A stretch of DNA of 17,366 nucleotides from assembly GCA_034722955.1 (NCBI GenBank), contig JAYEOM010000018.1:1-17366 (forward strand), given 5' to 3'. Of this stretch, positions 961 to 17,366 are shown in pieces (positions within the stretch are counted from its first letter, which is position 1; every line of letters starts with the position of its first letter). The translations under genes were made by a program, and so were the position numbers. The stretch comes from Campylobacterota bacterium. GTDB lineage: Bacteria > Campylobacterota > Campylobacteria > Campylobacterales > Sulfurovaceae. The notes beneath the pieces were generated by a model. It was not told the origin of the DNA. It ran no database searches and worked only from the letters and a program-made list of their open reading frames with translations.

Positions 961-998
961 AATCCCAGTCAATTAGGATTTATGCAACTTTTTCTTGA
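955..998 (+). terminator. Possible weak intrinsic terminator after brxL
   Basis: AAATCC-N10-GGATTT stem, extendable with a bulge (GTGT/ATGC), followed by AACTTTTTC. The stem is short. Confidence 0.25.
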
Positions 999-1029
999 TT
1001 TACTCTTGGGCTTTTTTGAAACTGAATTT

Positions 1030-2064: not shown

Positions 2065-2079
2065 GGCTACCAAACAGCT

Positions 2080-2484
2080 TTAATCCCTCACACATCTCAC
2101 ATGATAAGAGCGACTTTTATTGTAAGGCTCTGACTCTCCATAGCTCATAGATATACGCCATGCCTCTTTTTTGGGATTGCCTACAAAAGATGTAGCAGTC
2201 CAAAATCGGTCACTGATGCGTACTTCAAAACCTCTCTTGAGTGCCGGTCTGTCTCTTCTCATATCTACGATCGTATACATTTCACTGAGTGTGGGAAGTC
2301 GCCAATCTTCAAAACCATCTAGTTTGAGTTGTCTGCAATATACTATAGCCTCCCTATGTTCCATCTCATTTTGAATAATATCTCTGTTATCCTGCCACAC
2401 AAGTCCAGTTTTGTCATCCTGTTTGGATGATGCGGCAGATAGAAGTGCACCTGTGATCATCAGTGTAAATAAAATAGATTTCAT
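2080..2484 (-). CDS. Secreted DUF1566 (Lcl C-terminal domain) protein
   Basis: Motifs D.KTGLVWQ, YC..L.L.G..DWRLPT..E, FWT.T, AW and VRCVR. The start is reassigned to ATG 2484: it has a GGAGGG RBS, an ATGA overlap with the upstream gene, and a signal peptide (MKSILFTLMITGALLSA). Confidence 0.88.
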   Translation of the reverse strand: MKSILFTLMITGALLSAASSKQDDKTGLVWQDNRDIIQNEMEHREAIVYCRQLKLDGFEDWRLPTLSEMYTIVDMRRDRPALKRGFEVRISDRFWTATSFVGNPKKEAWRISMSYGESEPYNKSRSYHVRCVRD

Positions 2485-2936
2485 ATCCCCTCCTTGGCTG
2501 CTTTGGATCTCATATCTTTGACACATCTCACGGTATGGTTGGTGGTCTTATAGTTATAATAAGTCTCCCCAGTACGAAAATCTACTGTCCAAGCTCGTGA
2601 TGTAGTAGGAGCAAAGTTTGTAGAAGTCCAATATGTACCACTATCTACATAACTAAAGATAGGGTTGATAGAGGGGTTTGCCCGTGAATAATCCACGATC
2701 GAAAAAAGCTCTTTAAATGTCGGCAGTCTCCAGTGATCCATGCCACTTAAAACAAGTTTGTCACAATACAGAACTGCATCATCCCAATCTTCTGAACTCT
2801 TTTGAGAGGAGATATCATCTTGCCAATAGATACCATTTCTCTCATCTACTACTGCACCAACCAAGCCTTTCTCATCAGCTAAACAATCTGTACCTATAAG
2901 CAATCCTACGAAAAACAACATTATATATTTCTGCAT
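2481..2936 (-). CDS. Secreted DUF1566 (Lcl C-terminal domain) protein
   Basis: Motifs V.D...GIYWQ, WDDAV.YC, WRLPTFKEL.SIVD, YWTST, AWTVDF..G and VRCVK, plus a signal peptide and an AAGGAG RBS. The start is ATG 2936, or alternatively TTG 2942. Confidence 0.9.
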   Translation of the reverse strand: MQKYIMLFFVGLLIGTDCLADEKGLVGAVVDERNGIYWQDDISSQKSSEDWDDAVLYCDKLVLSGMDHWRLPTFKELFSIVDYSRANPSINPIFSYVDSGTYWTSTNFAPTTSRAWTVDFRTGETYYNYKTTNHTVRCVKDMRSKAAKEGI

Positions 2937-2976
2937 AGTCAAGATACTCCTTTTGATATTTCGGGTTTACTATTTG

Positions 2977-2985
2977 ATTATATCA
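2977..2985 (-). promoter_or_regulatory. Extended -10 promoter (TGATATAAT) for the DUF1566 pair
   Basis: Minus-strand TGaTATAAT about 25 nt upstream of the AAGGAG RBS. Confidence 0.6.
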
Positions 2986-2995
2986 TAATAATATA

Positions 2996-4153
2996 TTATT
3001 TAATCATCTCCAACACTCTTCCAACTGCCAAACCGCCAAATGTACCCAGTATATACCCCATCATAGCCATCAATACACCTATAGGGATGAGGGCTTTTGA
3101 GTATGCACCTGCTAGTATAGGGGCTGAGGCTACACCACCGATATTTGCGAGAGATGCAACACCTAGACTGAAGAGATCCAGCTTGAAAATCTTGGCAAAA
3201 AAGATCATCAACAGAGCATGAATGGAGATGATCACAAAACCTGCGATGATATAGAGTGGTGCCTGTGTCAATTCACCAAAGTTTGCACGAGAAGCGATCA
3301 GGGCTACTATGATATAGAGAAAAATATTGCCTAGCTCACTCGATCCAGCTACTCTACTCAATGGTGTCATAGCAGATATGGTTCCTGCGATCGTAGCCAA
3401 GATCACTACCCAAGTAGTTGTCGTAACAAAATCACTCACTGGTAGTAATCCAGCGATATATTGACTCATAGCAGAGACCATAAGAGCGATACCCAAAAGT
3501 AAAAATAGAGAGTGAAAAGTTATCTCTTCTCTGCTATGAGACCGAGACAACTTCTCCCCTACTTCATCTATGATAGATGTATCCGCACCACTCCATCGGT
3601 TAAACTTGCCTGCCAAAGGCACCAGTGCCAGCAGTATCATCACCCAGATAGCATAATCAACAGAGTCTATGAGAAGAGCATATCCCATCTTGGCATCGGG
3701 TACATTTAGAGCACCCTGTATCGCTACCATATTGGCAGTCCCGCCCATCCAGCTGCCACTCAATGCTGCAAATGCTCTCCACGCATCAGGCTCAAATAGA
3801 GTATGAAAGAGCAAAAACATCCCTATAAACCCTACTGCTATACTCATCGCAGCGAGAAAAAATGTCAAAATCATCTTTTTGCCGAGCTTCATAATCTGAC
3901 GAAGATCAGCATGCAGAAGCATCAAAAATATCATAGCTGGCAAGATATTGGACTTGATACTCTTGTAGGTCTCTGTAACCTCACTACTCTTCTGCCACAC
4001 CTCTAGTGTAGATAGCAGCATCACCACAAAATAGAGGATAACAATAGCAGGCAGATAGTCAAAGAGTCGCCATCTGTAGTACTTTTCACTATAGATTATA
4101 GCAGAAGCGATCACAATCAACAGAGACAAGTAGATAAAACCATTTTCAATCAT
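2996..4153 (-). CDS. DUF819 family integral membrane protein
   Basis: Polytopic hydrophobic protein with the family motifs GSWMGGTANMVA and ASLANIGGVASAP, and a GAGG RBS. Confidence 0.88.
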   Translation of the reverse strand: MIENGFIYLSLLIVIASAIIYSEKYYRWRLFDYLPAIVILYFVVMLLSTLEVWQKSSEVTETYKSIKSNILPAMIFLMLLHADLRQIMKLGKKMILTFFLAAMSIAVGFIGMFLLFHTLFEPDAWRAFAALSGSWMGGTANMVAIQGALNVPDAKMGYALLIDSVDYAIWVMILLALVPLAGKFNRWSGADTSIIDEVGEKLSRSHSREEITFHSLFLLLGIALMVSAMSQYIAGLLPVSDFVTTTTWVVILATIAGTISAMTPLSRVAGSSELGNIFLYIIVALIASRANFGELTQAPLYIIAGFVIISIHALLMIFFAKIFKLDLFSLGVASLANIGGVASAPILAGAYSKALIPIGVLMAMMGYILGTFGGLAVGRVLEMIK

Positions 4154-4421
4154 TTAAACCTCATTTATTAGTGTGAATAATCATACTAAAAAAGTGCTTT
4201 AAGGAAGTTATTTATTATTTAAGGGGTCTGGTAACAACTACAACCTTCAATACCAATACCACCTCCAAAGCAAAACAAGCTAAAATAAAAAATGTCGCAC
4301 AACCTAAGAGCCACACTGCACCGATTATTTATAAAAAGGCACAATATGATAGAGACTTTTTCTACTCAATCATTTAGACCTCATCTCTTAGTATGAGCCA
4401 TCATACTCAAAAGGATGCTTT
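4146..4421. repeat. Imperfect direct repeat (4146-4200 and 4366-4421), each copy containing a palindrome
   Basis: 4146-4187 and 4366-4407 match at 35 of 42 positions (counted by eye), 220 bp apart. The cores are TTAGTGTGA-ATAA-TCATACTAA and TTAGTATGA-GCCA-TCATACTCA. Confidence 0.85.
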
Positions 4422-4499
4422 GATTACAACTTATTCACCATGTGTTAATAAAATAATCATACCATAAGATAATCTCAAATAAATTATGAAAGATAAATT

Positions 4500-5849
4500 A
4501 TGAATAAAAAATTACTATTTACTCTACTATTTTCCGCTCAATCGCTCCTGCTGGCAAACTATACTCTATCGGAGGGGAAGCGTGCACCTAGCCAGATAGA
4601 TCGTATGCCACAGGGGCAGATAGAAGATATGAAAAAGATCCCTCAAAACCCTGCTTTTTATGCCAAACAGCTCAAAAAAGTCTCATATAAAAAACAGTTG
4701 AAGTGGGACAGGGAATATAACAAAAAGTTTTTTAGACCTTGGAGTCTCAACAAGATAGATAAAGCACTCAATGAGATGGAGTGGCCATTTCGTTCTGTCA
4801 CAAAAAAAACTATCTATGACAGCAGAGGTCGAGTCATCCCCTCTACTACCTATCAGCACTGGATCAAAAATGCCAATTTTGGCAAACTTGATACTATCCA
4901 CCAGAGAGGCATCACAACCAAACATGTAAATCTCCGTGCTCTGCCTACAAGTAGACCTTTTTATAATGATCCCAAAAAAACAGGTGAAGGTTTCCCCTTT
5001 GACTATAACCAAAACAGCTCATACCATATCAATACGCCACTCTATATATCACACTACTCCATCGATAGGAAGTGGGCGTATGTGCGTGGATCTGCCACCT
5101 ATGGATGGCTACCGATCTCTAGTATGGCTGTAGTCGATACTAAATTTATCAAAAAGTTCAAAAACAACCATTATGCTGTCGTCATCAGGGATGATCTCAA
5201 GCTATATAAAGATAAAAAATATCTCTCATTGGTGAAGTTGGGTGCTATCTTTCCTGTGATCAAAAGTCCTGTAGAGAAAAAAGCAAAAGCATATCTATTT
5301 GCAATACGAGGAGAAGGCGGAAAAGCCATCCTCCAATATACAACTGTTGCAAAAGCTGGATTGATCGCTAAAAAACCTATCGCTATGAGTAGCAAAAATG
5401 TGACGATGATCTCTAAGCAGTTCTATAATGAACCTTATGGATGGGGTGGATTGCTACAGACTAGGGACTGCTCCTCTTTTACAAAAGACTACTTTGCTCC
5501 ATTTGGTATCTTCCTGCGTAGAAACTCCAGCAAACAGGCAAAAGATGGAAAATATAGCAACATCAAAGGTATCCCAAAAGAGAAGAAAAAGAGGACGATC
5601 ATCACCAAAGCAAAACCATTTCAATCGATGCTCTATGTTCCTGGTCACATCGTCTTATATCTAGGTCAATACAGAGGTGAACCCGTAATCATGCATACCT
5701 ACTGGGGTGCCAGGCTCAAAGATGGCAGCAAAAAGATATTGGGCAGAACAGTTATCACCACCACAGAACCAGGAAAAGAGTTGGGAAATATCAAAGAGTC
5801 AAGCAAACTTGCCAATACACTAAAGGCGATCGTAACGCCAGGGGGATAG
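4500..5849 (+). CDS. SH3-domain NlpC/P60 (C40) cell-wall peptidase
   Basis: Signal peptide, FF.PW N-domain, LRALPT..P and GEGFPFDY.Q.S SH3-type region, catalytic PYGWGG...RDCS (Cys) and GHIVLYLG (His). Confidence 0.9.
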   Translation: MNKKLLFTLLFSAQSLLLANYTLSEGKRAPSQIDRMPQGQIEDMKKIPQNPAFYAKQLKKVSYKKQLKWDREYNKKFFRPWSLNKIDKALNEMEWPFRSVTKKTIYDSRGRVIPSTTYQHWIKNANFGKLDTIHQRGITTKHVNLRALPTSRPFYNDPKKTGEGFPFDYNQNSSYHINTPLYISHYSIDRKWAYVRGSATYGWLPISSMAVVDTKFIKKFKNNHYAVVIRDDLKLYKDKKYLSLVKLGAIFPVIKSPVEKKAKAYLFAIRGEGGKAILQYTTVAKAGLIAKKPIAMSSKNVTMISKQFYNEPYGWGGLLQTRDCSSFTKDYFAPFGIFLRRNSSKQAKDGKYSNIKGIPKEKKKRTIITKAKPFQSMLYVPGHIVLYLGQYRGEPVIMHTYWGARLKDGSKKILGRTVITTTEPGKELGNIKESSKLANTLKAIVTPGG

Positions 5850-5973
5850 GCACCTAAATTATGATCACAGTAAACCATAAAATTAAAAAAACAAAACAGA
5901 AATATATTATCATCACATTACACACTATGTTTGTTTCTAAAACAGCACAGATGCTAACTTTTTCTATAATTTA

Positions 5974-5982
5974 TGCTAAAAT
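5974..5982 (+). promoter_or_regulatory. Extended -10 (TGCTAAAAT) directly before rsmD, possibly leaderless
   Basis: TGnTAAAAT ends 6 nt before ATG 5989 and there is no SD sequence. A second TATAAT lies at 5965-5970. Confidence 0.5.
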
Positions 5983-5988
5983 TATTTT

Positions 5989-6597
5989 ATGAAAAAATAT
6001 GAAAAAATCAAACTTTTTACTACTACTATCATCGGTGGGAAGTATAGAGGCAAAACTTTAGAGATACCAGCTATCCATACTACACGAGGCTCCAAATCTA
6101 TCCTCAAAGAGTCACTATTCAATACCCTACAGTTTGATATTGCAGAGAAGAACTTTGTTGAAGTATTCTCCGGTAGTGGCTCTATCGGGTTGGAGGCGCT
6201 GAGTCGTGGTGCGGGTGCATGCTACTTTATAGAGTATAACAAAGATGCTTATCATATCTTGGGGCAAAATGTCAAGAGATTGGACCCATCTAAGTGTCAT
6301 ATCTTTTATGGTGATAGTTTTGAGAAGTTCGCCATGGTACAGGAGATAGTCAAGAGGAGTGATGAGAAGAGTTACTTCTATTTTGATCCACCATTTTCTA
6401 CTCGTGATGGGATGGATGAGGTCTATGACCAGACTATAGGGCTGATAGAGAGTATCGATCCTGAGTATTGCGAGATGGCGATCGTAGAGCATATGACCAA
6501 ACTGGACTTGCCGGAGAGTATCGGTAGATTGAAGTTCGTCAAACGCAAAAAGTTTGGTAGAAGTACACTCAGCTACTATAGACCAAAGGAGTTATAA
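5989..6597 (+). CDS. rsmD: 16S rRNA m2G966 methyltransferase RsmD
   Basis: IIGGKYRG..L, TTR....ILKESLFN, EVFSGSGSIGLEALSRGA, DPPF and KKFG.S.LSYY. Confidence 0.93.
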   Translation: MKKYEKIKLFTTTIIGGKYRGKTLEIPAIHTTRGSKSILKESLFNTLQFDIAEKNFVEVFSGSGSIGLEALSRGAGACYFIEYNKDAYHILGQNVKRLDPSKCHIFYGDSFEKFAMVQEIVKRSDEKSYFYFDPPFSTRDGMDEVYDQTIGLIESIDPEYCEMAIVEHMTKLDLPESIGRLKFVKRKKFGRSTLSYYRPKEL

Positions 6598-7409
6598 TGG
6601 AGCGAAAGATACCCTATGTCAGTATAGCGATACTTTTAGGGATATTTCTACTCTCTTTTATAGCCCCTCTCTTCTATACGATCTCCCCTTTTGAGCTGGA
6701 TAAAACTTTGATCCTAAGTATGCCCGACTTGGAACACCCAATGGGTACAGATAGACTAGGTAGAGATCTGCTAGCACGCGTTATGAATGGTGGTCAAGTC
6801 TCACTTATCATCGGTGTAGGTTCTGCTGTTATAGCTTCATTGGTAGGGCTGATTTTGGGGGTGAGTGCCGGATATTTCAAGGGTTATTTTGATAAGAGTT
6901 TTGTGGTAATAGTCGATCTTTTTCTCACTTTTCCGACCTTCTTTCTCCTGCTCGCTCTAGTGAGTTACATCTCTGCCTCTACTTTGATCTTGATCCTTGT
7001 CATCTCTATCACTGGGTGGATGGGAACATCACGACTCATAAGAGCAGAGAGTTATCGTATAGCTAACCAACCATATATCAAGGTACTTACTATAGCTGAT
7101 GTCTCCAATATGAAGATCATCTTCAAATACTTTCTTCCTCTGTTGGCACCTATATTTTTTGTCAGTTTTACATTTGGTGTGAGTGGTGCTATACTTGCAG
7201 AGAGCGGACTGAGCTATCTAGGACTAGGCGTCACGCCTCCTGACATGAGCTGGGGGAGTATACTCAGCGAAGGCAAATCTGTCATGGAGATCGCATGGTG
7301 GGTGAGCTTTTTCCCTGGATTGATGATCTTTCTAGTGACCTTCTCTCTCATACAGATCAGTGACTATCTGCAGAAGATCACAAACCAAAAAGAGAGTGTA
7401 AAGTCATAA
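6597..7409 (+). CDS. Peptide/nickel ABC transporter permease (DppC/OppC family)
   Basis: HPMGTDRLGRDLLARV..GG..SL, ILAESGLSYLGLG..PP..SWG and WW...FPG. It overlaps the rsmD stop codon. Confidence 0.9.
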   Translation: MERKIPYVSIAILLGIFLLSFIAPLFYTISPFELDKTLILSMPDLEHPMGTDRLGRDLLARVMNGGQVSLIIGVGSAVIASLVGLILGVSAGYFKGYFDKSFVVIVDLFLTFPTFFLLLALVSYISASTLILILVISITGWMGTSRLIRAESYRIANQPYIKVLTIADVSNMKIIFKYFLPLLAPIFFVSFTFGVSGAILAESGLSYLGLGVTPPDMSWGSILSEGKSVMEIAWWVSFFPGLMIFLVTFSLIQISDYLQKITNQKESVKS

Positions 7410-7427
7410 ACAACTAGGAGTAATAAT

Positions 7428-8189
7428 TTGAAAAATGAAGATCACATTGCCCTCTTTATAGATAGTGACAATATCAGTTACCACGCCATAGAGGGTATAC
7501 TCAATGAGCTGAGCAAATATGGCATCGTCAATATCCGTCAAGCTTATGCCAACTGGACAAAAGAGAATTTAAAAAACTGGGAATCTATCCTCCTGAAGTA
7601 TGCCATCAAACCGATACAGCAGTTTGACTACACTAAAGGCAAAAACGCTACAGATATACTTATGACCATCGATGCTATGGATATGCTCCACACCAAAAAG
7701 ATAGATGCTTTTGCTTTTGCTACTAGCGATAGTGACTTTACCCCTGTCGTGATGCGTGTCCAAGCAGAAGGTATCAAAGTATTCGGTTTTGGAGAGAAGA
7801 AGACACCCAAATCATTTATGGCTGCCTGTTCACAGTTTATCTTTACAGAGAAACTTATGAACAACAAAGAGGATAAGTGGCAAACACAAGGAGAGATCAA
7901 AGAGATATCCGCACGCAAGAGTGGTAAAGATATGCGTGCGGATACTTGGCTGGTCAATATCCTGCGTACTGCACTAGAGCAGACTATGGATGAGGATGGC
8001 TGGGCAAACCTAGCAGAGATAGGTGCCTACATAGGCAACAGCTCATCCTTTTCGCCCATCAACTATGGATACAAAAAACTCAGCAGTCTCATCAGAGCAA
8101 CAGAACTTTTCGACATCTACATGGACGAAGAGAGCAAGCTGATGAGCATAAGAGACAAACGATTTAAACCATCACTGTTTGAGGCATAA
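7428..8189 (+). CDS. NYN (LabA/DUF88) domain protein with C-terminal OST-HTH/LOTUS domain
   Basis: IALFIDSDN, GKNATDI.M.IDAMD, TSDSDFTP and C-terminal DGWA.L..IG...FSP.NYGYKKLS.LI. TTG start with an AGGAG RBS. Confidence 0.9.
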   Translation: MKNEDHIALFIDSDNISYHAIEGILNELSKYGIVNIRQAYANWTKENLKNWESILLKYAIKPIQQFDYTKGKNATDILMTIDAMDMLHTKKIDAFAFATSDSDFTPVVMRVQAEGIKVFGFGEKKTPKSFMAACSQFIFTEKLMNNKEDKWQTQGEIKEISARKSGKDMRADTWLVNILRTALEQTMDEDGWANLAEIGAYIGNSSSFSPINYGYKKLSSLIRATELFDIYMDEESKLMSIRDKRFKPSLFEA

Positions 8190-8331
8190 CTGATCTCTAC
8201 TGGGCATCTTCATCTTTGGAGCTGATGAATATTTAGAGATCGTAGCAGACTCATAGTGTTTCTTATCATCTGCCCGTATGGTGTGAGTGGAGTCAAGAAC
8301 AGAAAAGTAGAGATATAGCTTAGATTTTAGA

Positions 8332-8350
8332 TATAATCACAACAAAGGAG
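8332..8350 (+). promoter_or_regulatory. -10 box and RBS of the antitoxin-like gene
   Basis: TATAAT at 8332-8337, AAAGGAG at 8344-8350, ATG at 8356. Confidence 0.6.
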
Positions 8351-8355
8351 AACAG

Positions 8356-8612
8356 ATGCAAACGCTAACTATAAAAATAGATGATGACTATCTCAAACAA
8401 ATTCTTGACTTTTTGCAACAAATCCCTAAAAATAAAAGAGAAGTGTACCAACATACAAAGCTAGACATTATTTCACAAATACCTCAGGGAAAAAAGATGA
8501 TGATTTTTTGAATATTTTAAAAAATGGTCCAACTATATCAGAAGAAGAAGCAGAAGGTTGGGAGAGTAGTATTAATAAAGGATACAAATCATGGACGATA
8601 GAAGAGTTTTGA
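8356..8612 (+). pseudogene. Frameshifted putative antitoxin (VapB-like position); not in the ORF track
   Basis: MQTLTIKIDDDYLKQILDFLQQIPK... stops at 8511. The -1 frame from the A-run at 8490-8495 continues DDDFLNILKNGPTISEEEAEGWESSINKGYKSWTIEEF* and overlaps the PIN start at 8591, the usual antitoxin-toxin layout. Confidence 0.65.
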
Positions 8613-8690
8613 TAGATACCTCGATTTTTATAGAGTATTTTAGAAAAAAGAACAAAGAAAATGCAAAACTTTATACTTTACAAAATTTAG
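8591..8690 (+). pseudogene. 3'-truncated VapC/PIN toxin remnant
   Basis: The PIN N-terminus RVLIDTSIFIEYFRK is clear, but similarity fades after about 30 codons and the later acidic PIN motifs are not visible. The right boundary is approximate. Confidence 0.7.
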
Positions 8691-8755
8691 AGGCTTTACA
8701 CTGCATTGAACCATTCATCAAACTCCATAATAGCGTAAATAGATTTAAATTTGAG

Positions 8756-8779
8756 TATAATATTAGCCAAACAAGGAAG
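8756..8779 (+). promoter_or_regulatory. -10 box and RBS of the phospholipase D gene
   Basis: TATAAT at 8756-8761, AAGGAAG at 8773-8779, ATG at 8786. Confidence 0.55.
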
Positions 8780-8785
8780 TGTAAA

Positions 8786-10394
8786 ATGCATCACAAGATA
8801 GAGTTATCCTATTTTTTTCATATACTGGTACTAGGTATTATCATCCTTCTCTTTTCAGCCTGTACCCATACTGTGCCTGCTCCAGATATCGCCAAACAAA
8901 AGAGCTTTACCAAGCTTCCCAAAGCTAAAGCACCGCTCCTTGACTACCTGAACAATATAGATCAAAAACTTGGTGACAATTCTGCTTTTCACTCTCTTTC
9001 AGAGCCTAGAGATGCATTTGCCGCGAGGATCTTTTTGGTCGATCAAGCCAAAACCAGTCTGGATGTACAGTACTATATATGAAAATGACCGTACCGGAAA
9101 ATTTTTTGCTTATCATCTCTTGAGGGCAGCCCAAAGGGGAGTAAAAGTCCGTATTTTGATCGATGACTTAAGTACATCAGACAAAGATATTGAGTGGAAG
9201 ATGATGGCAGCACATCCCAATGTTGAGCTGCGTCTCTTCAACCCAAATCGCCTAAGAAGTTCTATGCGAAACTTGGCACTGCTGTTTGATGTAAACCGTC
9301 TTGGCAAACGAATGCACAATAAAGCACTGATCGCTGATGGTGCTGCTGCGATCATAGGAGGGAGAAATATCGGTGATGTCTATTATGCTGTTGACAAAGA
9401 TAGACTATTTTTTGACTATGACATCCTCTCCACTGGAAAAGTAGTAAAAGATATCTATCGATCTTTTGATCTCTACTGGAACAGCAAGGAGGCAGTACCC
9501 TCTTATGAGATACTAGAGGGACAGTTTAGTACTGCTGAGTATCGAAAGGCAACACAAAAACTTAAAAAGAGTGCATATGAGTTCCGGCAGAGCAGTATAG
9601 GAGAAGCTATGTTGCGTTCTGATTTTGCAAAAGATATATTTCGGGGAAAGGTAGATATGACTGTGGCGAAACGGGCTGATTTTTACTACGACTATCCTGA
9701 AAAAGTCAATAGTGATGAAGATGACGATCGAACCCATATCTCAGTACAGATAAGTAGTAACTTCGAACATGCCACAAACGATCTGATCATCATCTCTCCC
9801 TATTTTATCCCTAGCAGAGAGATGATGAAGAGACTTAAAGGATTGCGAGAGAGAGATGTAGAGGTCACTGTCATCACCAACTCATTGGCATCGACAGATG
9901 TCTTTGCTGTCTATAGCGGATATCGGTGGTATATCAAAGATCTAGTTGGAATGGGGGTCAAACTCTATGAGTTGAAGCCAAAAAGTTTCAAGAAGCTAAT
10001 CAGATCAAAGAGATGGCTAAAGAGTCGTAATACCTCTCTGCATACCAAGATGATGATCATCGATGAGGATCGTCTTGTGGTAGGCTCAGCCAATATCGAC
10101 CCTAGATCGGACAAGCTCAATACAGAGCTGATGATGATTATCAGCTCTAAGAAACTCACAAAAGCACAGCGATCAAAATTGACAAATATTTTGACAGAGG
10201 AGAATCTATATCGTGTCACTTGGGAAAAACACCCTCTAGATCCAGAGGACGATGGTGTCCCAATCTATGGACCAGTTTGGCACTCTACCAAAGATGGTGT
10301 GGAAAAAGTCTACTATTCACCGCCTCATGCAGGCTACTGGAGAAGATTGGGGACGGATATTCTCTCGTATTTACCGATAGAGGGATATCTATGA
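8786..10394 (+). pseudogene. clsC: ClsC/YmdC-like phospholipase D family lipoprotein, split by a frameshift at about 9074-9080
   Basis: ATG 8786 gives a lipoprotein signal (LFSAC) and DAFAARI.L...A..SLDVQYYI*. The next frame resumes YENDRTG...RGVKVRILIDD with two HKD motifs (RMHNKALIAD, SLHTKMMIID). Adding 2 nt to TATATAT restores one ORF. Confidence 0.85.
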
Positions 10395-10507
10395 TATTAT
10401 GATCTAGATTGGGCTCCTCTCACAACTCCCCTCCACCAATGAAGAGGATAAGGCTACACCACGGAAATAAACAACCAAATAGAAGCCAAAACAGTATTAA
10501 TAGTTTA

Positions 10508-10975
10508 TTAGTTATCCTCTATCGATACTGGCTTAAAATATATTCTCAATGTATCTTCTGAGATAAAAATCTTATCACTATCGCTTCTGAACTCAACAAG
10601 TACATAATCTTTTTTTAAGCCATCAAAACCACGATGATAAATCGTAAGCACCTCAGCATGGTCAGAGTAGTTGGCACAATCTTCTACTTTTATATAATAG
10701 TCACGCCCAAGACCAAGAAGCTTGTAAAAGTCTCTATTCTCTAAAGTATGAATCTTTTTATTTTTAAATTTATATCGTTTCTTCTGCTTTTTTCGTCTCT
10801 TTGCATCGAGCTCTTCTAATATCTTTTGCTTTTTTTCCGGATCATATTTGGAACCCCTCATTGTTTGAAGCTCTTTTTGGCGTTGACGCTCCAATCTCTC
10901 TTGACTCAACTTCTTTAAAATCATCTTTTTCTCTTCGGGAGAATAGTCATTTTCTATCTTTATCGTCTCTATCAT
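10508..10975 (-). CDS. Hypothetical basic protein with an internal N-terminal repeat
   Basis: 155-aa ORF with a GAGGAG RBS and a minus-strand TGCTATTAT (11001-11009) upstream. No family recognised. Confidence 0.75.
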   Translation of the reverse strand: MIETIKIENDYSPEEKKMILKKLSQERLERQRQKELQTMRGSKYDPEKKQKILEELDAKRRKKQKKRYKFKNKKIHTLENRDFYKLLGLGRDYYIKVEDCANYSDHAEVLTIYHRGFDGLKKDYVLVEFRSDSDKIFISEDTLRIYFKPVSIEDN

Positions 10976-11029
10976 CTCATTAGCTCCTCTCTTTTTTCTA
11001 ATAATAGCATAAAACTACAAATTGTCAAA

Positions 11030-11980
11030 TTATGCAAGCAGTTTCAGCATCATTGGTGCAGTCAAAATACTGGCAAAGAGTGTCACAAATACCAGCTTGG
11101 CAGCCAACTTGGCATCACATCCATATCGGTTTGCCAAAACTACGCTGAGCATAGCTGAAGGCATAGCCGATTCAAGTATGAGTACCTGTAGTTGCCATAT
11201 CTCCAGATCCATAAACCCGGCAGGTATCCAAACCAATATTGGAGATAGGATCAGTTTGAGTATTATCGTAGCTACTATAATATAAATAATATCTCTCAAT
11301 GAACTAAAATTTAGCATAACTCCAACAGTCAAAGCGACAATAAAAGTATTTGATTTTGCGATGATATGGATCATATCAAAGAGAGGCTCTATCACTATAC
11401 CCTGTGTCGGCAGAGAGAGAGTAGACCACAAGATACCTAAAACTATGGACAAAAAGATAGGTGAACGAAAAAATGGCAATATACCCTCAAGCAGTGTGAT
11501 CTCCTCTCTATCTGTACTGCCATAGTAGATAGCTATCATCACCCCGATCGTAAAGATAGGCAAGCCTACCCCAAGCTCTGAGACAAAAGCAGCCTCTACA
11601 AGTACAGCACTATTGCCAGGGAAGAGCTCTGCGATCAGTGCATACCCCAACAGTGCAGAACTCCCAAATGTAGAGACTATCAAAAAAGTACCCATCTGTT
11701 CACTCTTGAGCTTCAAAAATCTACCAACACCCCAAGAGGTCAGCAGTAAAATCATCTCCGCACCAAACATAATCAAAAAAAGCAGGAGATAGTGCCACTC
11801 CATAGCAGAGTGAGCCAAGGCAGTAAAGAGAAGTGCAGGAAGTGTGACCTGCATCACAAGCCAAGAGAAGAGAGCACCACTCTCCTGCTTGAGATGCCCT
11901 CTATGACGCAAATATGCAACAAAAAGTATCAACAGTACCAAGACCAGTATAGAGGTTAGAGTATGGATATATATCTGCAC
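11030..11980 (-). CDS. AEC (auxin efflux carrier / Mem_trans) family transporter
   Basis: About 10 hydrophobic segments, VTLPALLF, LKLILSP and AMPSA......A.RYG. The GTG start overlaps the helicase stop codon. Confidence 0.88.
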   Translation of the reverse strand: MQIYIHTLTSILVLVLLILFVAYLRHRGHLKQESGALFSWLVMQVTLPALLFTALAHSAMEWHYLLLFLIMFGAEMILLLTSWGVGRFLKLKSEQMGTFLIVSTFGSSALLGYALIAELFPGNSAVLVEAAFVSELGVGLPIFTIGVMIAIYYGSTDREEITLLEGILPFFRSPIFLSIVLGILWSTLSLPTQGIVIEPLFDMIHIIAKSNTFIVALTVGVMLNFSSLRDIIYIIVATIILKLILSPILVWIPAGFMDLEIWQLQVLILESAMPSAMLSVVLANRYGCDAKLAAKLVFVTLFASILTAPMMLKLLA

Positions 11981-13326
11981 TATCTCCTACCGCCTCTGCC
12001 TGATCCTTTATCACTTTTAGCTATAGGCTTTGAGTTGGATTGATATCCATCTCTTTTGGTTGTTTTTCGTTTTTTTGTTACTGTAGCTGTTTTTTTCTTC
12101 CCAAAAGCTCCGGCTGTTTTTGGTTTTTTTGCATTAGGATTTTTTCTGGCTCCTCTGCGTTCTGCCTGAACTGGGGGTGCATATCCGGGTATCACCTCTA
12201 TGGGTATAGATCGACCCATCATCCGCTCTACCGATCTGAGTGCAACCGATTCGTCTGCTGAACTCAGAGTGATAGCCAACCCCTCTCTGCCTGCTCTGCC
12301 TGTTCGTCCGATACGGTGGATAAAATCTTGTGTAACATGAGGGATATCATAGTTGATCACTACATCTAACTCTTTGATATCCAACCCTCTAGCAGCTATG
12401 TCTGTAGCCACTAGAACACGGATCTTTCTCTCTTTGAAGTCACTCAATGCACGGCTTCTGTTGCCTGATGTTTTATCTCCATGTATCACTGCTGTCTTGA
12501 GACCTGATGCTATAAGCTCAGCAGTGACTTCATCTGCTTGGGCTTTTTTTCTCACAAAGACCAGTACCTGCGGATAGTTTTGTGAACCGATGAGATATGA
12601 GAGCAGCTCTAGCTTCCTCTCCATCTCTACAGGATGCAAAATCTGTCTGACTAGAGCAGCACTACTCCCCATCGTCGCTATCTCGATCTCTATAGGTCTA
12701 TGGAGCAGTTCCAGACTTAGTGTTTTTACTGCATGCGGCAGTGTAGCGGAGATGAGTATATTTTGTCGTTTTGATTTGAGTGAATATATTATCCTAGATA
12801 CCTCTCTCAGAAAACCCATATCCAATATAGTGTCAGCCTCATCCAATATGAAGTAGTCCACACTCTTCAAGTCAAGATTGTTCTCTCCTAGATGCTCTAG
12901 TACACGCCCCGGTGTACCTACCACTATATCTACCCCCTCTGCCAATCGCCTCGCTTGGGCTGCGATAGGTGCACCACCGTATATGGCAGTACTCTTTAGA
13001 GATAGATATCTACTATACGCTTCTGTATGCTCTGCGACCTGTTTTGCCAACTCTCTAGTCGGTACCAATATCAATGCCCTGACCGCTATAGAAGTACTCT
13101 CATCTCGGTTTGGTTGTTGCTCTTTTTTTTGCATTATCATCTGCATCACAGGCAATACAAACCCAGCTGTCTTTCCAGTACCTGTCTGAGCACTTGCCAA
13201 GAGATCTCTACCTCCCATAATCGTTGGTATCAACTCTTTTTGTATAGGTGTAGGTGCTTGGTAGCCTCTCTCTTCTAGTGCTTTGAGAATAGCCGATGAG
13301 AGCTTCAGAGAAGAGAATGGCATCAC
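11980..13326 (-). CDS. DEAD-box RNA helicase (RhlE-like)
   Basis: Q motif GYQAPTPIQ, AQTGTGKT, PTRELA, TPGR, DEAD, SAT, ARGLD, HRIGRTGRAG and a basic tail. The start is GTG 13326 or ATG 13323. Confidence 0.95.
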   Translation of the reverse strand: MMPFSSLKLSSAILKALEERGYQAPTPIQKELIPTIMGGRDLLASAQTGTGKTAGFVLPVMQMIMQKKEQQPNRDESTSIAVRALILVPTRELAKQVAEHTEAYSRYLSLKSTAIYGGAPIAAQARRLAEGVDIVVGTPGRVLEHLGENNLDLKSVDYFILDEADTILDMGFLREVSRIIYSLKSKRQNILISATLPHAVKTLSLELLHRPIEIEIATMGSSAALVRQILHPVEMERKLELLSYLIGSQNYPQVLVFVRKKAQADEVTAELIASGLKTAVIHGDKTSGNRSRALSDFKERKIRVLVATDIAARGLDIKELDVVINYDIPHVTQDFIHRIGRTGRAGREGLAITLSSADESVALRSVERMMGRSIPIEVIPGYAPPVQAERRGARKNPNAKKPKTAGAFGKKKTATVTKKRKTTKRDGYQSNSKPIAKSDKGSGRGGRR

Positions 13327-13850
13327 TAAAAAGTCTTTTCTAATTTAACTGTACCATCTTTATGGTACTCTTTTCCCATACCTTTTGGTTTGGTATGAAC
13401 ATATGGTACTTCTGATTGCAGTTCACCTGTAGGATAGTAAGTCTTTACTATACCCTCAATACTCCCTTGAACATAGGGTGACTCAGACTGTACCGTGCCG
13501 TCTTTGTAGTAATATATCATCATACCCTCTGGCTGACCCTCAACCCAAGAGGTTTCACTCTTCAACTCCCCACTCTTGTAGTATGACTTGACTTTACCAT
13601 CTATATTTCCATTTTTGTATGGTGTTGACTGCATGAGCATGCCATCTTCTCTATACATATTTTTATCACCATGCCGCACACCATCTATGCGAGGTGACTC
13701 TACCATGATTTTGCCATTAGGATGGTATGATTTTTTGACTATCACCTCTCCAGTTCCAACACTGCTACTGCTATCTCCACTCGTGCAACCCAAAAGGAGA
13801 ACACTCAAAAGCCCAGCCCCCAAGACTAACCTGATCCTTCTATATATCAT
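13326..13850 (-). CDS. MORN-variant repeat (YwqK-like) lipoprotein
   Basis: Lipobox LLGC, Ser-rich linker, and about 24-aa repeats of the form YY.SG.L.SE.PY..G..EG. Confidence 0.85.
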   Translation of the reverse strand: MIYRRIRLVLGAGLLSVLLLGCTSGDSSSSVGTGEVIVKKSYHPNGKIMVESPRIDGVRHGDKNMYREDGMLMQSTPYKNGNIDGKVKSYYKSGELKSETSWVEGQPEGMMIYYYKDGTVQSESPYVQGSIEGIVKTYYPTGELQSEVPYVHTKPKGMGKEYHKDGTVKLEKTF

Positions 13851-14033
13851 CGGTAAAATCCTTTTTATATAAATTAGAAATATAGTATCGAAAGTTTATT
13901 AACAACAAGGTTGACGGAATTTTATATTAAAAACTATCAATAAATTATATATTAGCGTATCCTTAAACCGTTACGATATCATATCGAGTATAAAATAGGT
14001 AAAAAAGGATAGAAGTCAAATATCATCAGAACA

Positions 14034-14216
14034 CCAACCAAGATCAATATCGCTTCATTTGGAAACTATATGCCACATGTGCATTGGCATATTATGGCTC
14101 GTTTTGCAGAAGATAGCTATTTCCCTGAACCGATGTGGGGAGAGAAGCAGAGAGAAGCAAATCTCACACTCCCCTCTATGGAGACCTTTCTTGAGCAAAT
14201 AAGAGAGATAGATTAG
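14034..14216 (+). pseudogene. 5'-truncated HIT family protein; not in the ORF track
   Basis: Translates as PTKINIASFGNYMPHVHWHIMARFAEDSYFPEPMWGEKQRE...ID* with the histidine triad HVHWH. There is an in-frame TAG at 14010-14012 and no start codon between it and the homologous part. Confidence 0.85.
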
Positions 14217-14288
14217 ACAGATCTATAGATCTAGCTTCTTCCGATTTCACCCCAACCTTATCAAAGTCAAAACAAGCTAAAATAAAGC

Positions 14289-14314
14289 TATAATTAAGTA
14301 TTAATATATAGGAG
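14289..14314 (+). promoter_or_regulatory. -10 box and RBS of the corrinoid operon
   Basis: TATAAT at 14289-14294, AGGAG at 14310-14314, ATG at 14325. Confidence 0.6.
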
Positions 14315-14324
14315 ATTTTGCGTA

Positions 14325-14957
14325 ATGGATACTTTGATTCAAGAGTTTGAAGATGCTCTGCTCTCTCTAGATAGGATAAAAATTAGAGAAATTTTATCCT
14401 CCAGGTCTGATAGTGGTGGTGCTATACCACTGCTGGAAGATGTTGTCATACCGGCTATGGATAGCATAGGTCAGAGGTGGGAAGATGGTGGCGTAGCACT
14501 CTCTCAGGTATATATGGGTGGTAAGATCCTCGAAGAGATTGTTGATGAGTTGATACCAAAAAAAAGTATCAAAAGAGTAGATCAACCCAATATCGCCATA
14601 CTTGTTTACAAAGATTACCATCTTTTAGGAAAGCGTATAGTATATACATTTTTAAAATCCAATGGTTATGATGTGATTGATTATGGTCTGCAGCATAGTA
14701 TAGAATCGATAATTAAAAAGATAAAACAAGACAAGATACAGATCCTTCTCATCTCAGTGCTAATGTTAAACTCTGCGATAAATACAAAAGAGCTTATCTC
14801 AAAGATAAAAGATGAAAAGTTAAATACCAAGGTTGTAGTTGGCGGTGCACCGTTTAGGTTTGATGCAGATCTGTATAGAGAAGTGGGTGCTGATGCGTAT
14901 GCAACCAATGCTTTTCAAGCGGTAGATATCATAGAAAAACTCAAAGGATTGTTATGA
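14325..14957 (+). CDS. Corrinoid (cobalamin-binding) protein, MtaC/MtbC-like
   Basis: Helical cap domain (V.PAM..IG.RWE.G) followed by a B12-binding domain with DxHxxG (DYHLLG), G..V.D.G, SxL (SVL), VGGAP and GADAYA.NA. Confidence 0.92.
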   Translation: MDTLIQEFEDALLSLDRIKIREILSSRSDSGGAIPLLEDVVIPAMDSIGQRWEDGGVALSQVYMGGKILEEIVDELIPKKSIKRVDQPNIAILVYKDYHLLGKRIVYTFLKSNGYDVIDYGLQHSIESIIKKIKQDKIQILLISVLMLNSAINTKELISKIKDEKLNTKVVVGGAPFRFDADLYREVGADAYATNAFQAVDIIEKLKGLL

Positions 14958-15976
14958 CATCGATGCAGAGAGTATTGACAGCTATAGGTCAAGAGGAAGC
15001 TGATAGAGTTCCATATTTTTTACTGTTGTCTATGCATGGAGCAAAAGAGTTAAATCTCTCTATTGAGGAGTATTTCTCAAGTGCCAAAAATGTTTTTGAG
15101 GGGCAGTTGAAGCTTCGCGAAAAATATGGACATGATTGCTACTACTCTCTCTTTTATGCTCCCATAGATACTGAAGCATTTGGTGCTGATGTTATCTATA
15201 GTGAAGATGGTCCGCCAAATGCCGGAGAGCCTTTTCTCAAAAAAGAGATGATCGATTCACTAAGAGCTCCAACCGTAGGTGAATCTAAAGTATTAAAAAA
15301 AGTTTTAGATGCTACATCCATGCTAAAAGAGGTAGCCAAAGATGAGGTACCTATCATCGGTGTAGTTGTGTCACCATTTTCACTGCCGGTTATGCAGATG
15401 GGATTTAGCAGTTATCTGGACCTTATCTATGATGATAGGAAACTATTTGAAAAGCTTATGAGGGTCAATATAGGATTTTGTATCAATTGGGCAAATGCAC
15501 AGCTCGAAGCTGGTGCTACTGCTATCACATACTTTGATCCGATATCCTCCACAACTATTATTCCGCGTGAACTCTATCTGGAGACTGGATTTAAAGTCGC
15601 AAAAGAGACAATTTCACAGATCAATGGACCAACAGCAACTCATTTTGCCTCAGGAGATTGTCTGCCGATCATGAAAGATATCATAGAGACTGGTACAGCT
15701 GTTGTTGGTGTTAGCATATTTGAGGATTTGAGAGATTTGAAGAGTGCAGCAGATAAGAGATTGACACTTTTGGGAAATTTAAATGCTATAGAGATGAGAC
15801 ACTGGAGTGTTGAACAGACAAAACAGTATGTAAAAGAGGCTATCGATAGTGCTGCAAAAGGTGGAGGATTTATCTTGGCAGATAATCACGGTGAAATTCC
15901 ATGGGATATCAAAGAGGAGACTCTACTTGCAATAAGAGAGGCGGTTTATGAGTATGGAAAATATCCGATCAAATAG
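14954..15976 (+). CDS. URO-D superfamily protein, MtaA/CmuA (MT2)-like
   Basis: MT..QRVL.A.....DRVP N-terminus, EAFGA, SPFSL, Q.EAGA.....DP, L.GNL and GGFIL....EIP. ATGA-coupled to the corrinoid gene. Lacks the HemE RQAGR motif. Confidence 0.88.
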   Translation: MTSMQRVLTAIGQEEADRVPYFLLLSMHGAKELNLSIEEYFSSAKNVFEGQLKLREKYGHDCYYSLFYAPIDTEAFGADVIYSEDGPPNAGEPFLKKEMIDSLRAPTVGESKVLKKVLDATSMLKEVAKDEVPIIGVVVSPFSLPVMQMGFSSYLDLIYDDRKLFEKLMRVNIGFCINWANAQLEAGATAITYFDPISSTTIIPRELYLETGFKVAKETISQINGPTATHFASGDCLPIMKDIIETGTAVVGVSIFEDLRDLKSAADKRLTLLGNLNAIEMRHWSVEQTKQYVKEAIDSAAKGGGFILADNHGEIPWDIKEETLLAIREAVYEYGKYPIK

Positions 15977-17366
15977 GGTAACTACATTTTATATATGTGA
16001 AAGCTATACAGCAGAGCTTAAAGCAGTCACAAAGAGATATGATAATGTTGTTATAGAGCCATATAGAGCCAAGTGTAAATATCATAATATTGATGATCCT
16101 TTTGAGAAGCTTAAGCCCCAAAAAGATGCTTTTATACTTGGGGGATGCACAATTGAGCCAGATAACATAGTCGGCTCTACAGCATTTCACAAAGAGGAGA
16201 ACTGCTTTTATATGTTTGCACCCAAAACACTGGTGCAGAGCTATATGGAAAATGGTGCTTATATCATTACTCCCGGCTGGCTAAGTCACTGGAGGAGATA
16301 TGTTACAGAGTTATGGGGATTTGAGAGAGATAATGCTCAAATATTTTTTAAAGAATTTTGTAAAAAGTTGGTTTTACTAAATACTCAGGTCAATAACAAA
16401 TCAAACGAACAGTTAAGAGAGTTTGCAAAATTTGTTGATAGACCATATGAAATAGTCCCTATAGGATTGGAGTTTTTTCAATTATATGTTGACAGCATTA
16501 TCAATCAGGAGAAACTAAAAAATTCCAACAGAGAGATCAAATCAAGACTTGATGAATCACTGCGAGATACAGCAAACTATGCAATGGCATTTGACCTTCT
16601 CAGCATAATCAATAAAAAAGTAGATGAGAAAGAGATTACAGATAGTATAAAAGAGATATTTACTATGCTGTTTGCATCAGAAAACATCACCTATATGGCG
16701 ATAAAAGATTCTAAAATAATCGAAAATCTCTCAAGCAGTATTGATAGTGAGACATCTGCCTATCTTTTTAATATAGAAGATAGCTACAGACTATATGATG
16801 ATGGCTTTGCTGTTAAACTGATATATGACAATCAGACAGTTGGTATTGTCAGTGTAGAGAATATTGCTTTTGTTCAGTATATCTATCAATATCTTAATCT
16901 AGCGATATCTATCAGCAGTGTGTGTGCTTTGGCTATTGAAAATGCAAGAAGCAAACTAAAAACCAAAGAGATTGAGGCACAACTTATACAACATGCCAAA
17001 TTAGTTGAGATGGGTGAGATGATGGGTTCTATCGCCCATCAATGGAGACAACCTCTAAATGAGTTGAACATAAACATAGAGATGCTTGAAGAGTATTATA
17101 ACCTAGAAGAGATAGATGAAAATTTTATCGATGCATTTATAGAAAAAAATATAAAAATCATATATTTCTTATCTAAGACCATTACAGATTTTAGTAACTT
17201 TTTTAGAATTAATAAACAAAAAGTTCATTTTAGTATAAAAGAGAGTATAGAAAACACACTAGATATCATACAGATGCAGCTCAACAAACACAACATCATA
17301 TTTGAAATGAGTGGCGAAGATAGTAAAGTGTTTGGTTTGCCTAGTGAATTTCAACAAGTGATTTTA
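15954..17366 (+). CDS. Cytoplasmic sensor histidine kinase with a DUF1638-like N-domain and a GAF-like domain, 3'-partial; not in the ORF track
   Basis: Open frame of 471 codons from ATG 15954 to the window end. N-domain: FYICE, LGGC, ENCFYMF, GAYIITPGWL..W (DUF1638-like). GAF-like end: VGIVSV...ALAIENAR. H-box EMGEMMGSIAHQWRQPLN (His362), TITDFSNFF, and the start of the N-box (EFQQVIL). No transmembrane segment seen. Confidence 0.88.
   Translation, partial: MENIRSNRVTTFYICESYTAELKAVTKRYDNVVIEPYRAKCKYHNIDDPFEKLKPQKDAFILGGCTIEPDNIVGSTAFHKEENCFYMFAPKTLVQSYMENGAYIITPGWLSHWRRYVTELWGFERDNAQIFFKEFCKKLVLLNTQVNNKSNEQLREFAKFVDRPYEIVPIGLEFFQLYVDSIINQEKLKNSNREIKSRLDESLRDTANYAMAFDLLSIINKKVDEKEITDSIKEIFTMLFASENITYMAIKDSKIIENLSSSIDSETSAYLFNIEDSYRLYDDGFAVKLIYDNQTVGIVSVENIAFVQYIYQYLNLAISISSVCALAIENARSKLKTKEIEAQLIQHAKLVEMGEMMGSIAHQWRQPLNELNINIEMLEEYYNLEEIDENFIDAFIEKNIKIIYFLSKTITDFSNFFRINKQKVHFSIKESIENTLDIIQMQLNKHNIIFEMSGEDSKVFGLPSEFQQVIL

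Follow-up and report, generated by a model that had tools for sequence, protein, structure and literature searches.

We analyzed a 17,366-nucleotide stretch of DNA, here called the window, from a Campylobacterota bacterium (assembly GCA_034722955.1, contig JAYEOM010000018.1, positions 1 to 17,366), and concentrated on three overlapping genes that occupy its end on the + strand, from 14325 to 17366 (Table 1). They encode a corrinoid protein, a protein of the URO-D/MtaA superfamily, and a sensor protein composed of DUF1638, a GAF-fold domain, and a histidine kinase. The first-pass annotation had taken this trio for a candidate cobalamin-dependent sensing system, in which the corrinoid protein and its partner feed the kinase and the DUF1638 domain reads their state. 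Genome surveys bore out the trio as a unit and altered one part of the picture: a special GAF domain, designated GAF*, and not DUF1638, is the invariant partner of the corrinoid/URO-D pair.

Table 1. Coordinates, within the window, of the three genes, the sensor domains, and the upstream signals
Feature	Position	Strand	Remark
-10-like TATAAT (14289-14294) and Shine-Dalgarno AGGAG (14310-14314)	14289..14314	+	read from sequence
Corrinoid protein gene	14325..14957	+	open reading frame of 210 amino acids; four-helix cap and Rossmann B12-binding domain, His-on
URO-D/MtaA-superfamily methyltransferase-like gene	14954..15976	+	open reading frame of 340 amino acids
Sensor gene, open reading frame	15948..17366	+	open at window end
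Sensor domain 1, DUF1638 (residues 1-195)	15948..16532	+	Pfam PF07796
Sensor domain 2, GAF-fold, distinct subfamily GAF*	16533..16967	+	fold match
Sensor kinase part: DHp/HisKA helix, His364 (17037-17039), start of ATPase domain	16968..17366	+	

The first and second genes share the ATGA at 14954-14957. The second and third overlap by 29 nucleotides (nt) if the sensor begins at the ATG at 15948, or by the 23 nt given in the annotation if it begins at the ATG at 15954. The later start is the more likely one, because the N termini of the relatives P0005, P0006, and P0009 correspond to 15954. The single -10 sequence and ribosome-binding site that had been described are both there, with AGGAG sitting 10 nt ahead of the ATG of the first gene, but a consensus promoter scan of positions 13700 to 17366 found 16 sites where 15.6 were expected. 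Because that scan was not enriched over shuffled sequence, the signals ahead of the first gene are plausible but unproven, and the promoter and terminator counts across the same interval, which lay at shuffle level, were not used as evidence. No 19-residue segment in any of the three proteins exceeds a Kyte-Doolittle value of 1.6; lacking a membrane-spanning hydrophobic stretch, all three are soluble, as had been said of the kinase.

The corrinoid protein matched the Pfam families B12-binding_2 (1.9e-10) and B12-binding (5.2e-21). The DxHxxG motif that had been called intact reads D97-Y-H99-L-L-G102, and is accompanied by S144xL146 and G173G174; residues D97, H99, G102, S144, L146, G173, and G174 were kept in 73 of 73 orthologues. 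With a cap, a B12-binding domain, and the DxHxxG, SxL, and GG motifs, the protein has the domain and motif makeup of the MtaC/MtbC/MttC-type corrinoid proteins. It reached no curated NCBIfam cut-off: the best match, "methyltransferase cognate corrinoid protein" (TIGR02370), gave 94 bits against a cut-off of 215.3, the MtbC model 83 bits (cut-off, 350), and the MtaC model 59 bits (cut-off, 420). Among solved structures, its profile was closest to MttC (7xcn, 3.7e-27), MtmC (3ezx), and an O-demethylase corrinoid protein, and further from MetH, MtaC, photocobilins, and AerR. The cap keeps G49xxW52, and Y63 is invariant; V62-Y63 stands at the presumed position, relative to W52, of the EH motif of light-responsive B12 proteins.

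The second protein is a full-length member of the URO-D TIM-barrel family (Pfam, 4.6e-54, 184 bits), with MtaA (4ay7) as its best solved relative and true uroporphyrinogen decarboxylases next; neither OdmB nor VdmB was among the solved structures. It too stayed below every curated NCBIfam cut-off, scoring 110 against 244 for PRK06252, 103 against 235 for TIGR01463, and 90 against 400 for MtaA, and the MtaA/CmuA models were likewise missed. Identity with HemE was rejected, given a score of 57.9 against 302.95 for the hemE equivalog and a separate URO-D match of 390.9 bits in the genome. The earlier description of the protein as an atypical MT2 proved apt. In the alignment to 4ay7, the HxC of MtaA falls on H230-F-A232 and the C-terminal Cys on H312; the His-x-Cys...Cys set of MtaA presumably supplies the zinc ligands. 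Residues A232, S233, and H312 are conserved across 70 URO-D-like sequences, the segment H312-G-E-I-P is invariant, and the MtaA zinc site is not present in this family. Because the cysteine ligands, in the zinc-binding role assumed here, are absent, the URO-D-like protein is unlikely to use a thiol acceptor as MtaA does. The protein is the best conserved of the trio, with 29 invariant columns and a mean column identity of 64% over the 70 sequences, and shows 39 to 79% identity across phyla.

A check of the domains proposed for the trio confirmed B12-binding_2, B12-binding, URO-D, and DUF1638, while HisKA was found only below its cut-off (17.1 bits against 26.9) and GAF was recovered as a fold but not as a Pfam match. 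DUF1638 (PF07796) matched residues 79 to 178 of the sensor at 3.9e-11, with 43.5 bits against a gathering score of 27, and carries an invariant GxYxxTPGWLxxW motif. Four cysteines are nearly invariant in this domain (C17 in 75 of 77 sequences, C43 in 76 of 77, a third Cys in 71 of 77, and C86 in 71 of 77), and in the predicted model, an alpha/beta domain with a predicted local distance difference test (pLDDT) score of 90.7, they are located at the ends of beta-strands. Against solved folds the model gave a best VIA Z of 6.9, to creatininase, PTS IIB, and REC-like alpha/beta proteins, and Foldseek returned no match at E<=0.001; the prediction suggests a generic alpha/beta arrangement and nothing more specific.

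Residues from about 200 to 335 adopt a GAF fold, with a VIA Z of 12.4 to PDE2A (3ibj; root mean square deviation 2.7 over 131 aligned residues), 11.7 to the KdpD GAF domain (4y2f), 11.5 to DosS GAF-A, and above 9 to many other GAF entries; Foldseek matched the Lcd1 GAF entry 5w10 at 1e-4. The Pfam models GAF, GAF_2, and GAF_3 gave no match in the sensor at E<=0.01. The 134 GAF* sequences share a signature of their own, ADYA..D...L...E...LFAP...Y...GF...G...FP...YLNLA...C.LAI.NAR. The DHp helix follows from residue 340 or so and holds the phospho-accepting His364 in IAHQWRQPL, which is near-invariant among the aligned relatives. A run of 100 N directly past the window end (17367-17466; 3368-3467 in locus L001) cuts the kinase after residue 473. 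The protein P0004, of 576 amino acids, is 100% identical over those 473 residues and carries HATPase_c, and among solved structures its kinase core alone finds a match (3a0r, 1.3e-19). Read through P0004, the sensor has both the H-box His and the HATPase_c domain of a HisKA-type kinase, with residues 474 to 576 falling in the gap. A search for this C terminus elsewhere in the assembly returned paralogous kinases only, at 48% identity or less; it is not assembled.

We used a profile of the 335-residue DUF1638-GAF* module to survey contigs representing one genome per species, and found 76 genome loci spread over many phyla. By record title, the carriers include Campylobacterota; relatives of Thiomargarita and Beggiatoa; Chloroflexi; Desulfobacterota, including Geomonas and Geobacter; Bacteroidota; a Melioribacteraceae metagenome-assembled genome (MAG); Nitrospirae; Nitrospinota; Thermosipho; Synergistaceae; Syntrophaceae; Riflebacteria; Cloacimonadaceae; Holophagaceae; Myxococcota; Magnetococcales; Burkholderiales; Methylococcaceae; Verrucomicrobiota; Alphaproteobacteria; groundwater MAGs; and, with two loci, the phototroph "Candidatus Viridilinea." Sulfate reducers and giant sulfur bacteria are represented, and cultivable carriers include Desulfobacter vibrioformis DSM 8776, Geomonas spp., and Rubrivivax sp. 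A210. Judged from these record names, most carriers appear to be anaerobes or gradient dwellers. Three loci have no upstream room (L009 and L048 begin at the sensor, and L023 begins inside the URO-D-like gene). In 71 of the other 73, the order is corrinoid protein, URO-D-like protein, sensor, all on one strand and mostly with intergenic gaps of -31 to +30 nt; the exceptions are L013, which has the corrinoid gene only, and L010, which has neither gene. The annotation had named a lack of conservation in other genomes as a reason to abandon the idea, and what we found was conservation; such recurrence across genomes shows that the gene order is not accidental.

The outputs fused to the module vary. 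Fifty-two are kinases (plain HisKA-HATPase forms, PAS-kinases, hybrids with REC or Hpt, and one HisKA_2/HWE kinase), a figure that includes two broken forms, L038 with an in-frame stop and L070 split by a frameshift. Twelve are GGDEF cyclases, some of which also have PAS or another GAF domain, ten are proteins of 337 to 442 amino acids with no known output domain, and two are stand-alone DUF1638 proteins of 213 amino acids in alphaproteobacterial loci. Swapped outputs had thus been rightly anticipated for kinases and GGDEF, but not for HD-GYP, the nearest to which was a separate REC-HD_5 gene downstream of the sensor in L068. Clustering of the neighbors over the 76 loci in search of a hidden MT1, RACE, or acceptor gene showed no recurrent metabolic gene; the sole recurrent cluster consisted of signaling proteins, present in 45 of the 76. 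Genes just downstream of the sensor often contain REC, as REC-kinases, single REC proteins, REC-PAS-GGDEF-EAL, or REC-HD_5 proteins, and in the closest relative, L008, a REC-PAS-kinase gene comes next with a 13-nt overlap. The DUF1638-GAF* family as a whole comprises 964 clusters at 50% identity (E<=1e-30), and all 150 of the hits listed have a match that starts no further than residue 35 of the protein.

As a separate observation, sensor genes of four MAG loci carry in-frame stops or frameshifts (L038, 2078-4588; L070, 3132-5004; L028, 9983-11725; L073, 9977-13441). The breaks lie between DUF1638 and GAF* or inside the kinase and are either assembly errors or genuine splits; those in L038 and L070 would yield a separate DUF1638 protein.

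The reverse survey started from the URO-D-like protein, whose profile was run against metagenome contigs; from at least 599 pattern matches, 518 relatives were confirmed, and the best 80 were kept. A corrinoid gene lies upstream in all 74 of these loci with 500 nt or more of room (73 of 74 in the profile search, which missed L085, where the URO-D-like gene is split). Downstream, 48 loci have DUF1638 plus GAF*, 10 have DUF1638 and then the contig end, 1 has DUF1638 with no GAF* match, 16 have GAF* without any DUF1638, and 1 is too short. GAF* follows the pair in 64 of 69 loci, and 16 of the 64 do without DUF1638; in these, the protein starts directly at the GAF* helix and continues into HisKA-HATPase, PAS-kinase, PAS-GGDEF, or GAF-kinase outputs or ends after about 240 amino acids. 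DUF1638-less loci numbered 21 by single-sequence tblastn and 20 by profile search, and inspection of the loci showed the DUF1638-less form to be real, so loss through poor search sensitivity was rejected. Because 16 of 64 GAF* loci lack DUF1638, the constant core consists of the corrinoid protein, the URO-D-like protein, and GAF*, with DUF1638 an add-on in roughly three quarters of cases. Whether DUF1638 was there or not, GAF* never occurred apart from the corrinoid/URO-D pair in the loci examined. The claim that DUF1638 is the reading domain loses its footing here, both through these loci and through the two alphaproteobacterial loci in which DUF1638 is a separate protein of 213 amino acids.

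Duplicated parts occur in a few loci. L077 has a second GAF* (7179-7577, - strand) on the opposite strand, upstream of the trio, and L122 (5659-6288, + strand) and L108 (7153-7587, + strand) have a second corrinoid protein gene a few kilobases downstream.

The host genome (99.97% complete, 140 contigs) contains a single DUF1638, that of the trio. A search for RNA evidence turned up four DNA runs of one study and no RNA runs. It has three B12-binding matches, namely, the trio gene, a MetH-size frame of 1171 amino acids, and a frame of 141 amino acids, and two URO-D matches, HemE and the trio gene; pterin-binding matches are limited to a FolP-size frame and MetH. The annotation had seen no MT1 or RACE gene in the window, and this holds there and extends to the genome, where the families searched, RACo_C_ter, MTTB, and MtaB, each gave 0 matches. 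It had also looked to the downstream DNA for a response regulator, MT1, or RACE gene; what lies there is a PAS-GGDEF frame (L001, 3471-4352) whose N terminus is hidden by the same N gap, and no MT1 or RACE of the families searched was matched. Cobalamin synthase (CobS), the only biosynthesis family searched, gave no match either, and because the genome nevertheless encodes a MetH-size enzyme and a corrinoid protein, the host may depend on external cobamides.

These observations led us to regard the three genes as one signaling device in which the corrinoid/URO-D pair would be the input of the sensor, because the pair is a constant feature, the three genes are coupled in translation, and the outputs are interchangeable, and because no metabolic partner recurs and the host lacks a pathway that uses methyl-corrinoid. 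It is rather probable, in our judgment from comparative genomics, that the kinase or cyclic di-GMP output is gated by the corrinoid protein, whose state serves as the signal. Also in favor of this are the invariance of the B12 ligand motifs and the exceptional conservation of the URO-D-like protein. The corrinoid protein would hold cobalamin base-off/His-on, and its dedicated URO-D/MtaA-like partner would dock on the upper face of the cofactor, where it probably adds or removes a methyl group or otherwise sets the cobalt state. The resulting states (apo or holo, CH3-Co(III), or Co(II)/Co(I)) would be relayed to the sensor by protein contact, and GAF* would drive the output. In this host the output is a HisKA/HATPase kinase, whose target is probably the PAS-GGDEF gene beyond the N gap, perhaps with a REC domain, as L008 and L053 would suggest; elsewhere it is a GGDEF protein or a hybrid kinase. 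The four-cysteine DUF1638 domain would be an accessory that probably binds the corrinoid protein and may carry a metal or Fe-S center that keeps or reports the redox state of the cofactor. The signal may be a compound that donates or accepts methyl groups without a zinc-thiolate, something that oxidizes Co(I), or the supply of cobamide, which would be plausible if the host, in which CobS is missing, relies on cobamides from outside. The main idea of the annotation, a trio that feeds a kinase through its corrinoid state, thus appears to have been right, while its choice of reading domain was wrong or at least unproven. The cobalt state as signal, its ligand, the coupling of the pair to the output by GAF*, and the binding of the corrinoid protein by DUF1638 are what we infer.

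Published genetics and complex prediction bear on the last of these. In Phaeobacter, DUF1638 is required for a split B12 methionine synthase and is encoded beside its B12-binding protein (PMC5764234). The corrinoid protein and the DUF1638 domain scored 0.48 together, against 0.01 for the best of 3 controls, which rates as "weak support"; the runs agreed in at least 92% of contacts, with a partner pLDDT of at least 76. Of 157 solved complexes, 116 attained the mark used, and of 215 mismatched pairs, 2 did so; at scores of 0.60 or less, those attaining it were only 18 of the 157 and both of these mismatches.

Several points weigh against a signaling role. The predicted complex is a weak pass at a score where both false passes fell. 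Adjacency and fusion fit a regulator that controls the pair equally well. Four loci of the reverse survey have neither DUF1638 nor GAF* downstream of the URO-D-like gene, and the counts of that survey are not independent, since near-duplicate metagenome loci are among them (e.g., L092/L093, L111/L113/L114, L116/L117, and L163/L164). Of 5 further genomes with the trio that were tested, which may be incomplete, 2 have a RACE gene at another site. Within the phylum, the URO-D-like gene (E<=1e-20) was found in 1 of 401 sampled genomes from 63 genera, namely, this one. The trio is an accessory trait in Campylobacterota, with a small Campylobacterota-labeled clade of relatives found in metagenomes by protein search, and because it is rare within the phylum its role here cannot be generalized from relatives. 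The URO-D-like protein also keeps H230 (in 90% or more of sequences), H312, and E314, so a noncysteine metal site and true catalysis with another substrate are possible, and the pair could be the enzyme itself.

The strongest rival is a metabolic one. The trio might be a methyltransferase or demethylase system of small size that brings along its own regulator; the URO-D-like enzyme would run both half-reactions on the corrinoid protein, DUF1638 would maintain the cofactor, and GAF* would recognize the substrate without an intermediary and turn on the operon or cell behavior. A single enzyme can do this; MtsA performs both half-reactions in the MtsAB system. Regulators are often encoded beside their targets, and the URO-D-like protein is conserved in the manner of an enzyme. 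The alphaproteobacterial MAG loci L081 and L083 (about 1500-10600) look more metabolic as well: a RACE activase with a Fer2 domain is followed by a distant trio of corrinoid, URO-D, and stand-alone DUF1638 genes, a PAS-kinase-REC gene, and then a close corrinoid/URO-D pair with a stand-alone DUF1638, so that two paralogous trios and a separate kinase occur with no GAF*. DUF1638 has been tied genetically to a metabolic corrinoid enzyme in Phaeobacter inhibens, whose split B12 methionine synthase requires DUF1638 and a RamA-like protein and whose DUF1638 gene adjoins that of the B12-binding subunit; the authors propose no function for DUF1638 (PMC5764234). A 2025 paper treats DUF1638 together with RamA as a predicted cobalamin-recharging factor (PMC12478193). 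On the other side, the host genome has no second methyltransferase of the families searched, no methyl acceptor pathway, and no RACE; no metabolic neighbor recurs in the 76 loci; many outputs are GGDEF proteins or hybrid kinases and not regulators of transcription at one operon; and the zinc-thiolate site for thiol acceptors is absent. DUF1638 is moreover fused to the signaling protein in most loci, and the overlaps suggest stoichiometric coproduction. We therefore hold the metabolic explanation to be unlikely, though it is the best of the alternatives.

Less likely again is redox or metal sensing by the four-cysteine DUF1638 independently of the pair, which would then be a serviced client or coregulated cargo. 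The near-invariant cysteines at beta-strand ends would suit such a sensor, as would carriers that, by record title, are mostly anaerobes or gradient dwellers. However, the cofactor of DUF1638 is only putative, the 16 GAF* loci that lack DUF1638 keep both the pair and the outputs, and the presence of the pair in 71 of 73 DUF1638-GAF* loci is too constant for optional cargo. A B12 photoreceptor, in which light cleaves the Co-C bond, the URO-D-like protein remethylates, and the sensor reports the light state, is very improbable: B12-binding domains are established light sensors that occur with GGDEF, GAF, and other outputs (PMC11796333), G49xxW52 is kept, and "Candidatus Viridilinea" is among the carriers, but of the CarH-type light-response signature (GxxW, EH, GxxH, and GxxxP, as given in PMC11796333) the EH is not obvious in the cap, the NCBIfam CarH model gave 25.8 bits against a cut-off of 400, photocobilins and AerR are more distant from the profile than methylamine and O-demethylase corrinoid proteins are, and many carriers (Thermosipho, Synergistaceae, Syntrophaceae, and groundwater MAGs) have names that suggest dark habitats. 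The CarH-type reading is accordingly disfavored.

The signaling device we prefer can be put in a more specific form, which as a whole we offer as tentative. It may be a new class of chemosensor in which the corrinoid protein serves as a rewritable bit, methyl-Co(III) versus demethylated or oxidized cobalt. The bit would be written by a URO-D-like methyltransferase devoid of the zinc-binding cysteines, from an environmental or metabolic one-carbon donor, or cleared when O2, N2O, or another oxidant attacks Co(I). It would be read by a private GAF subfamily, with the four-cysteine DUF1638 replacing RACE as a built-in guardian of the cofactor that needs no ATP. Two-component and cyclic di-GMP networks would take their input from the module in about 1,000 protein clusters and many phyla, and DUF1638 would gain its first molecular role.

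To our knowledge, the only signaling roles described for cobalamin are those of a light-sensitive chromophore, in CarH-family proteins, and of a riboswitch ligand, and no role beyond that of a carrier in C1 metabolism is known for methyl-corrinoid proteins. If the signaling interpretation is true, the trio would represent a third signaling use of cobalamin, chemical sensing through cobalt methylation, redox state, or occupancy; a packed unit that recurs across phyla with interchangeable outputs points to such an undescribed route from B12 chemistry to a cellular signal. The long-open function of DUF1638 would become directly testable, GAF* would define a new GAF subfamily, and a compact, portable three-gene input module would be at hand for synthetic signaling.

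In comparison with known systems, the trio most resembles the MtaC/MtaA (MT2) pairs of methanogens and acetogens, in which a two-domain, His-on corrinoid protein adjoins a URO-D-fold partner. It differs in that the genome has no MT1, among the families searched, and no RACE, that the zinc-cysteine ligands are replaced and the NCBIfam cut-offs are missed, and that a signaling protein nearly always lies downstream of the pair. The GAF fold of DosS/DosT and KdpD likewise stands directly ahead of the DHp helix; GAF*, in contrast, is missed by the Pfam GAF models and has its own signature and its private association with the pair. The P. inhibens set shares with the trio a DUF1638 encoded by, and functionally tied to, a protein with a B12-binding cap and B12-binding domain, whereas its DUF1638 is a protein by itself that serves an enzyme and occurs alongside a RamA-like protein (PMC5764234). 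In the trio, DUF1638 is fused to the GAF*-kinase, the host has no RamA-like gene, and its MetH is a full-size frame of 1171 amino acids.

CarH, AerR, and the photocobilins also employ a B12-binding domain in signaling, and across the wider family the partners of that domain include GGDEF, GAF, and kinases (PMC11796333 and PMC10979010). In those proteins the cobalamin domain itself, with adenosylcobalamin and the signature motifs given above, is fused to the output, while the corrinoid protein of the trio is a separate, methyltransferase-type protein with a URO-D-like partner and no obvious EH. Type 1 mlp clusters are widespread in nonmethanogens and join MtaA-like proteins to a corrinoid protein with no H4folate methyltransferase; they have two or three Mlps and a RACE protein and occur mostly in Firmicutes (Kountz and Balskus, bioRxiv 2023, PMC10418091). 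Assignment of the trio to this type was rejected, since the definition in that paper requires at least Mlp2 and Mlp3, a corrinoid protein, and RACE, and the trio has one URO-D-like gene and no RACE in the genome. A DUF1638/GAF sensor is not involved in mlp clusters, and PMC10418091 was not returned by a full-text search for DUF1638. Full-text searching of the literature, which leaves subscription journals mostly uncovered, gave no description of a signaling module of corrinoid and URO-D proteins with GAF or DUF1638, and the supplements of PMC5764234 and PMC10418091 could list such clusters. In our assessment, the module belongs to none of the kinds of system described so far, and its function is proposed from comparative genomics.

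The trio is flanked by defense-type genes. The window starts (1-2064, + strand) inside a BrxL-type Lon-like protease gene of BREX defense, followed by an asparagine-synthase-family gene; at the other end the contig runs 5.9 kb past the window, where a type III restriction Res gene and then a DUF4276/AAA_21 pair lie beyond the PAS-GGDEF frame. Within the window, a phospholipase-D-family gene (8970-10394, + strand) is preceded by an overlapping open reading frame of 163 amino acids in another frame (8591-9082) with no Pfam match, which may be its frameshifted N-terminal part. Just upstream of the trio, a 67-codon stop-to-stop frame (14013-14216, + strand) ends in ...MPHVHWHIMARF..., which we take to resemble the C-terminal histidine-triad part of a HIT-family protein; the frame has no start codon context and no Pfam match at 1e-5, and it is possibly a gene remnant.

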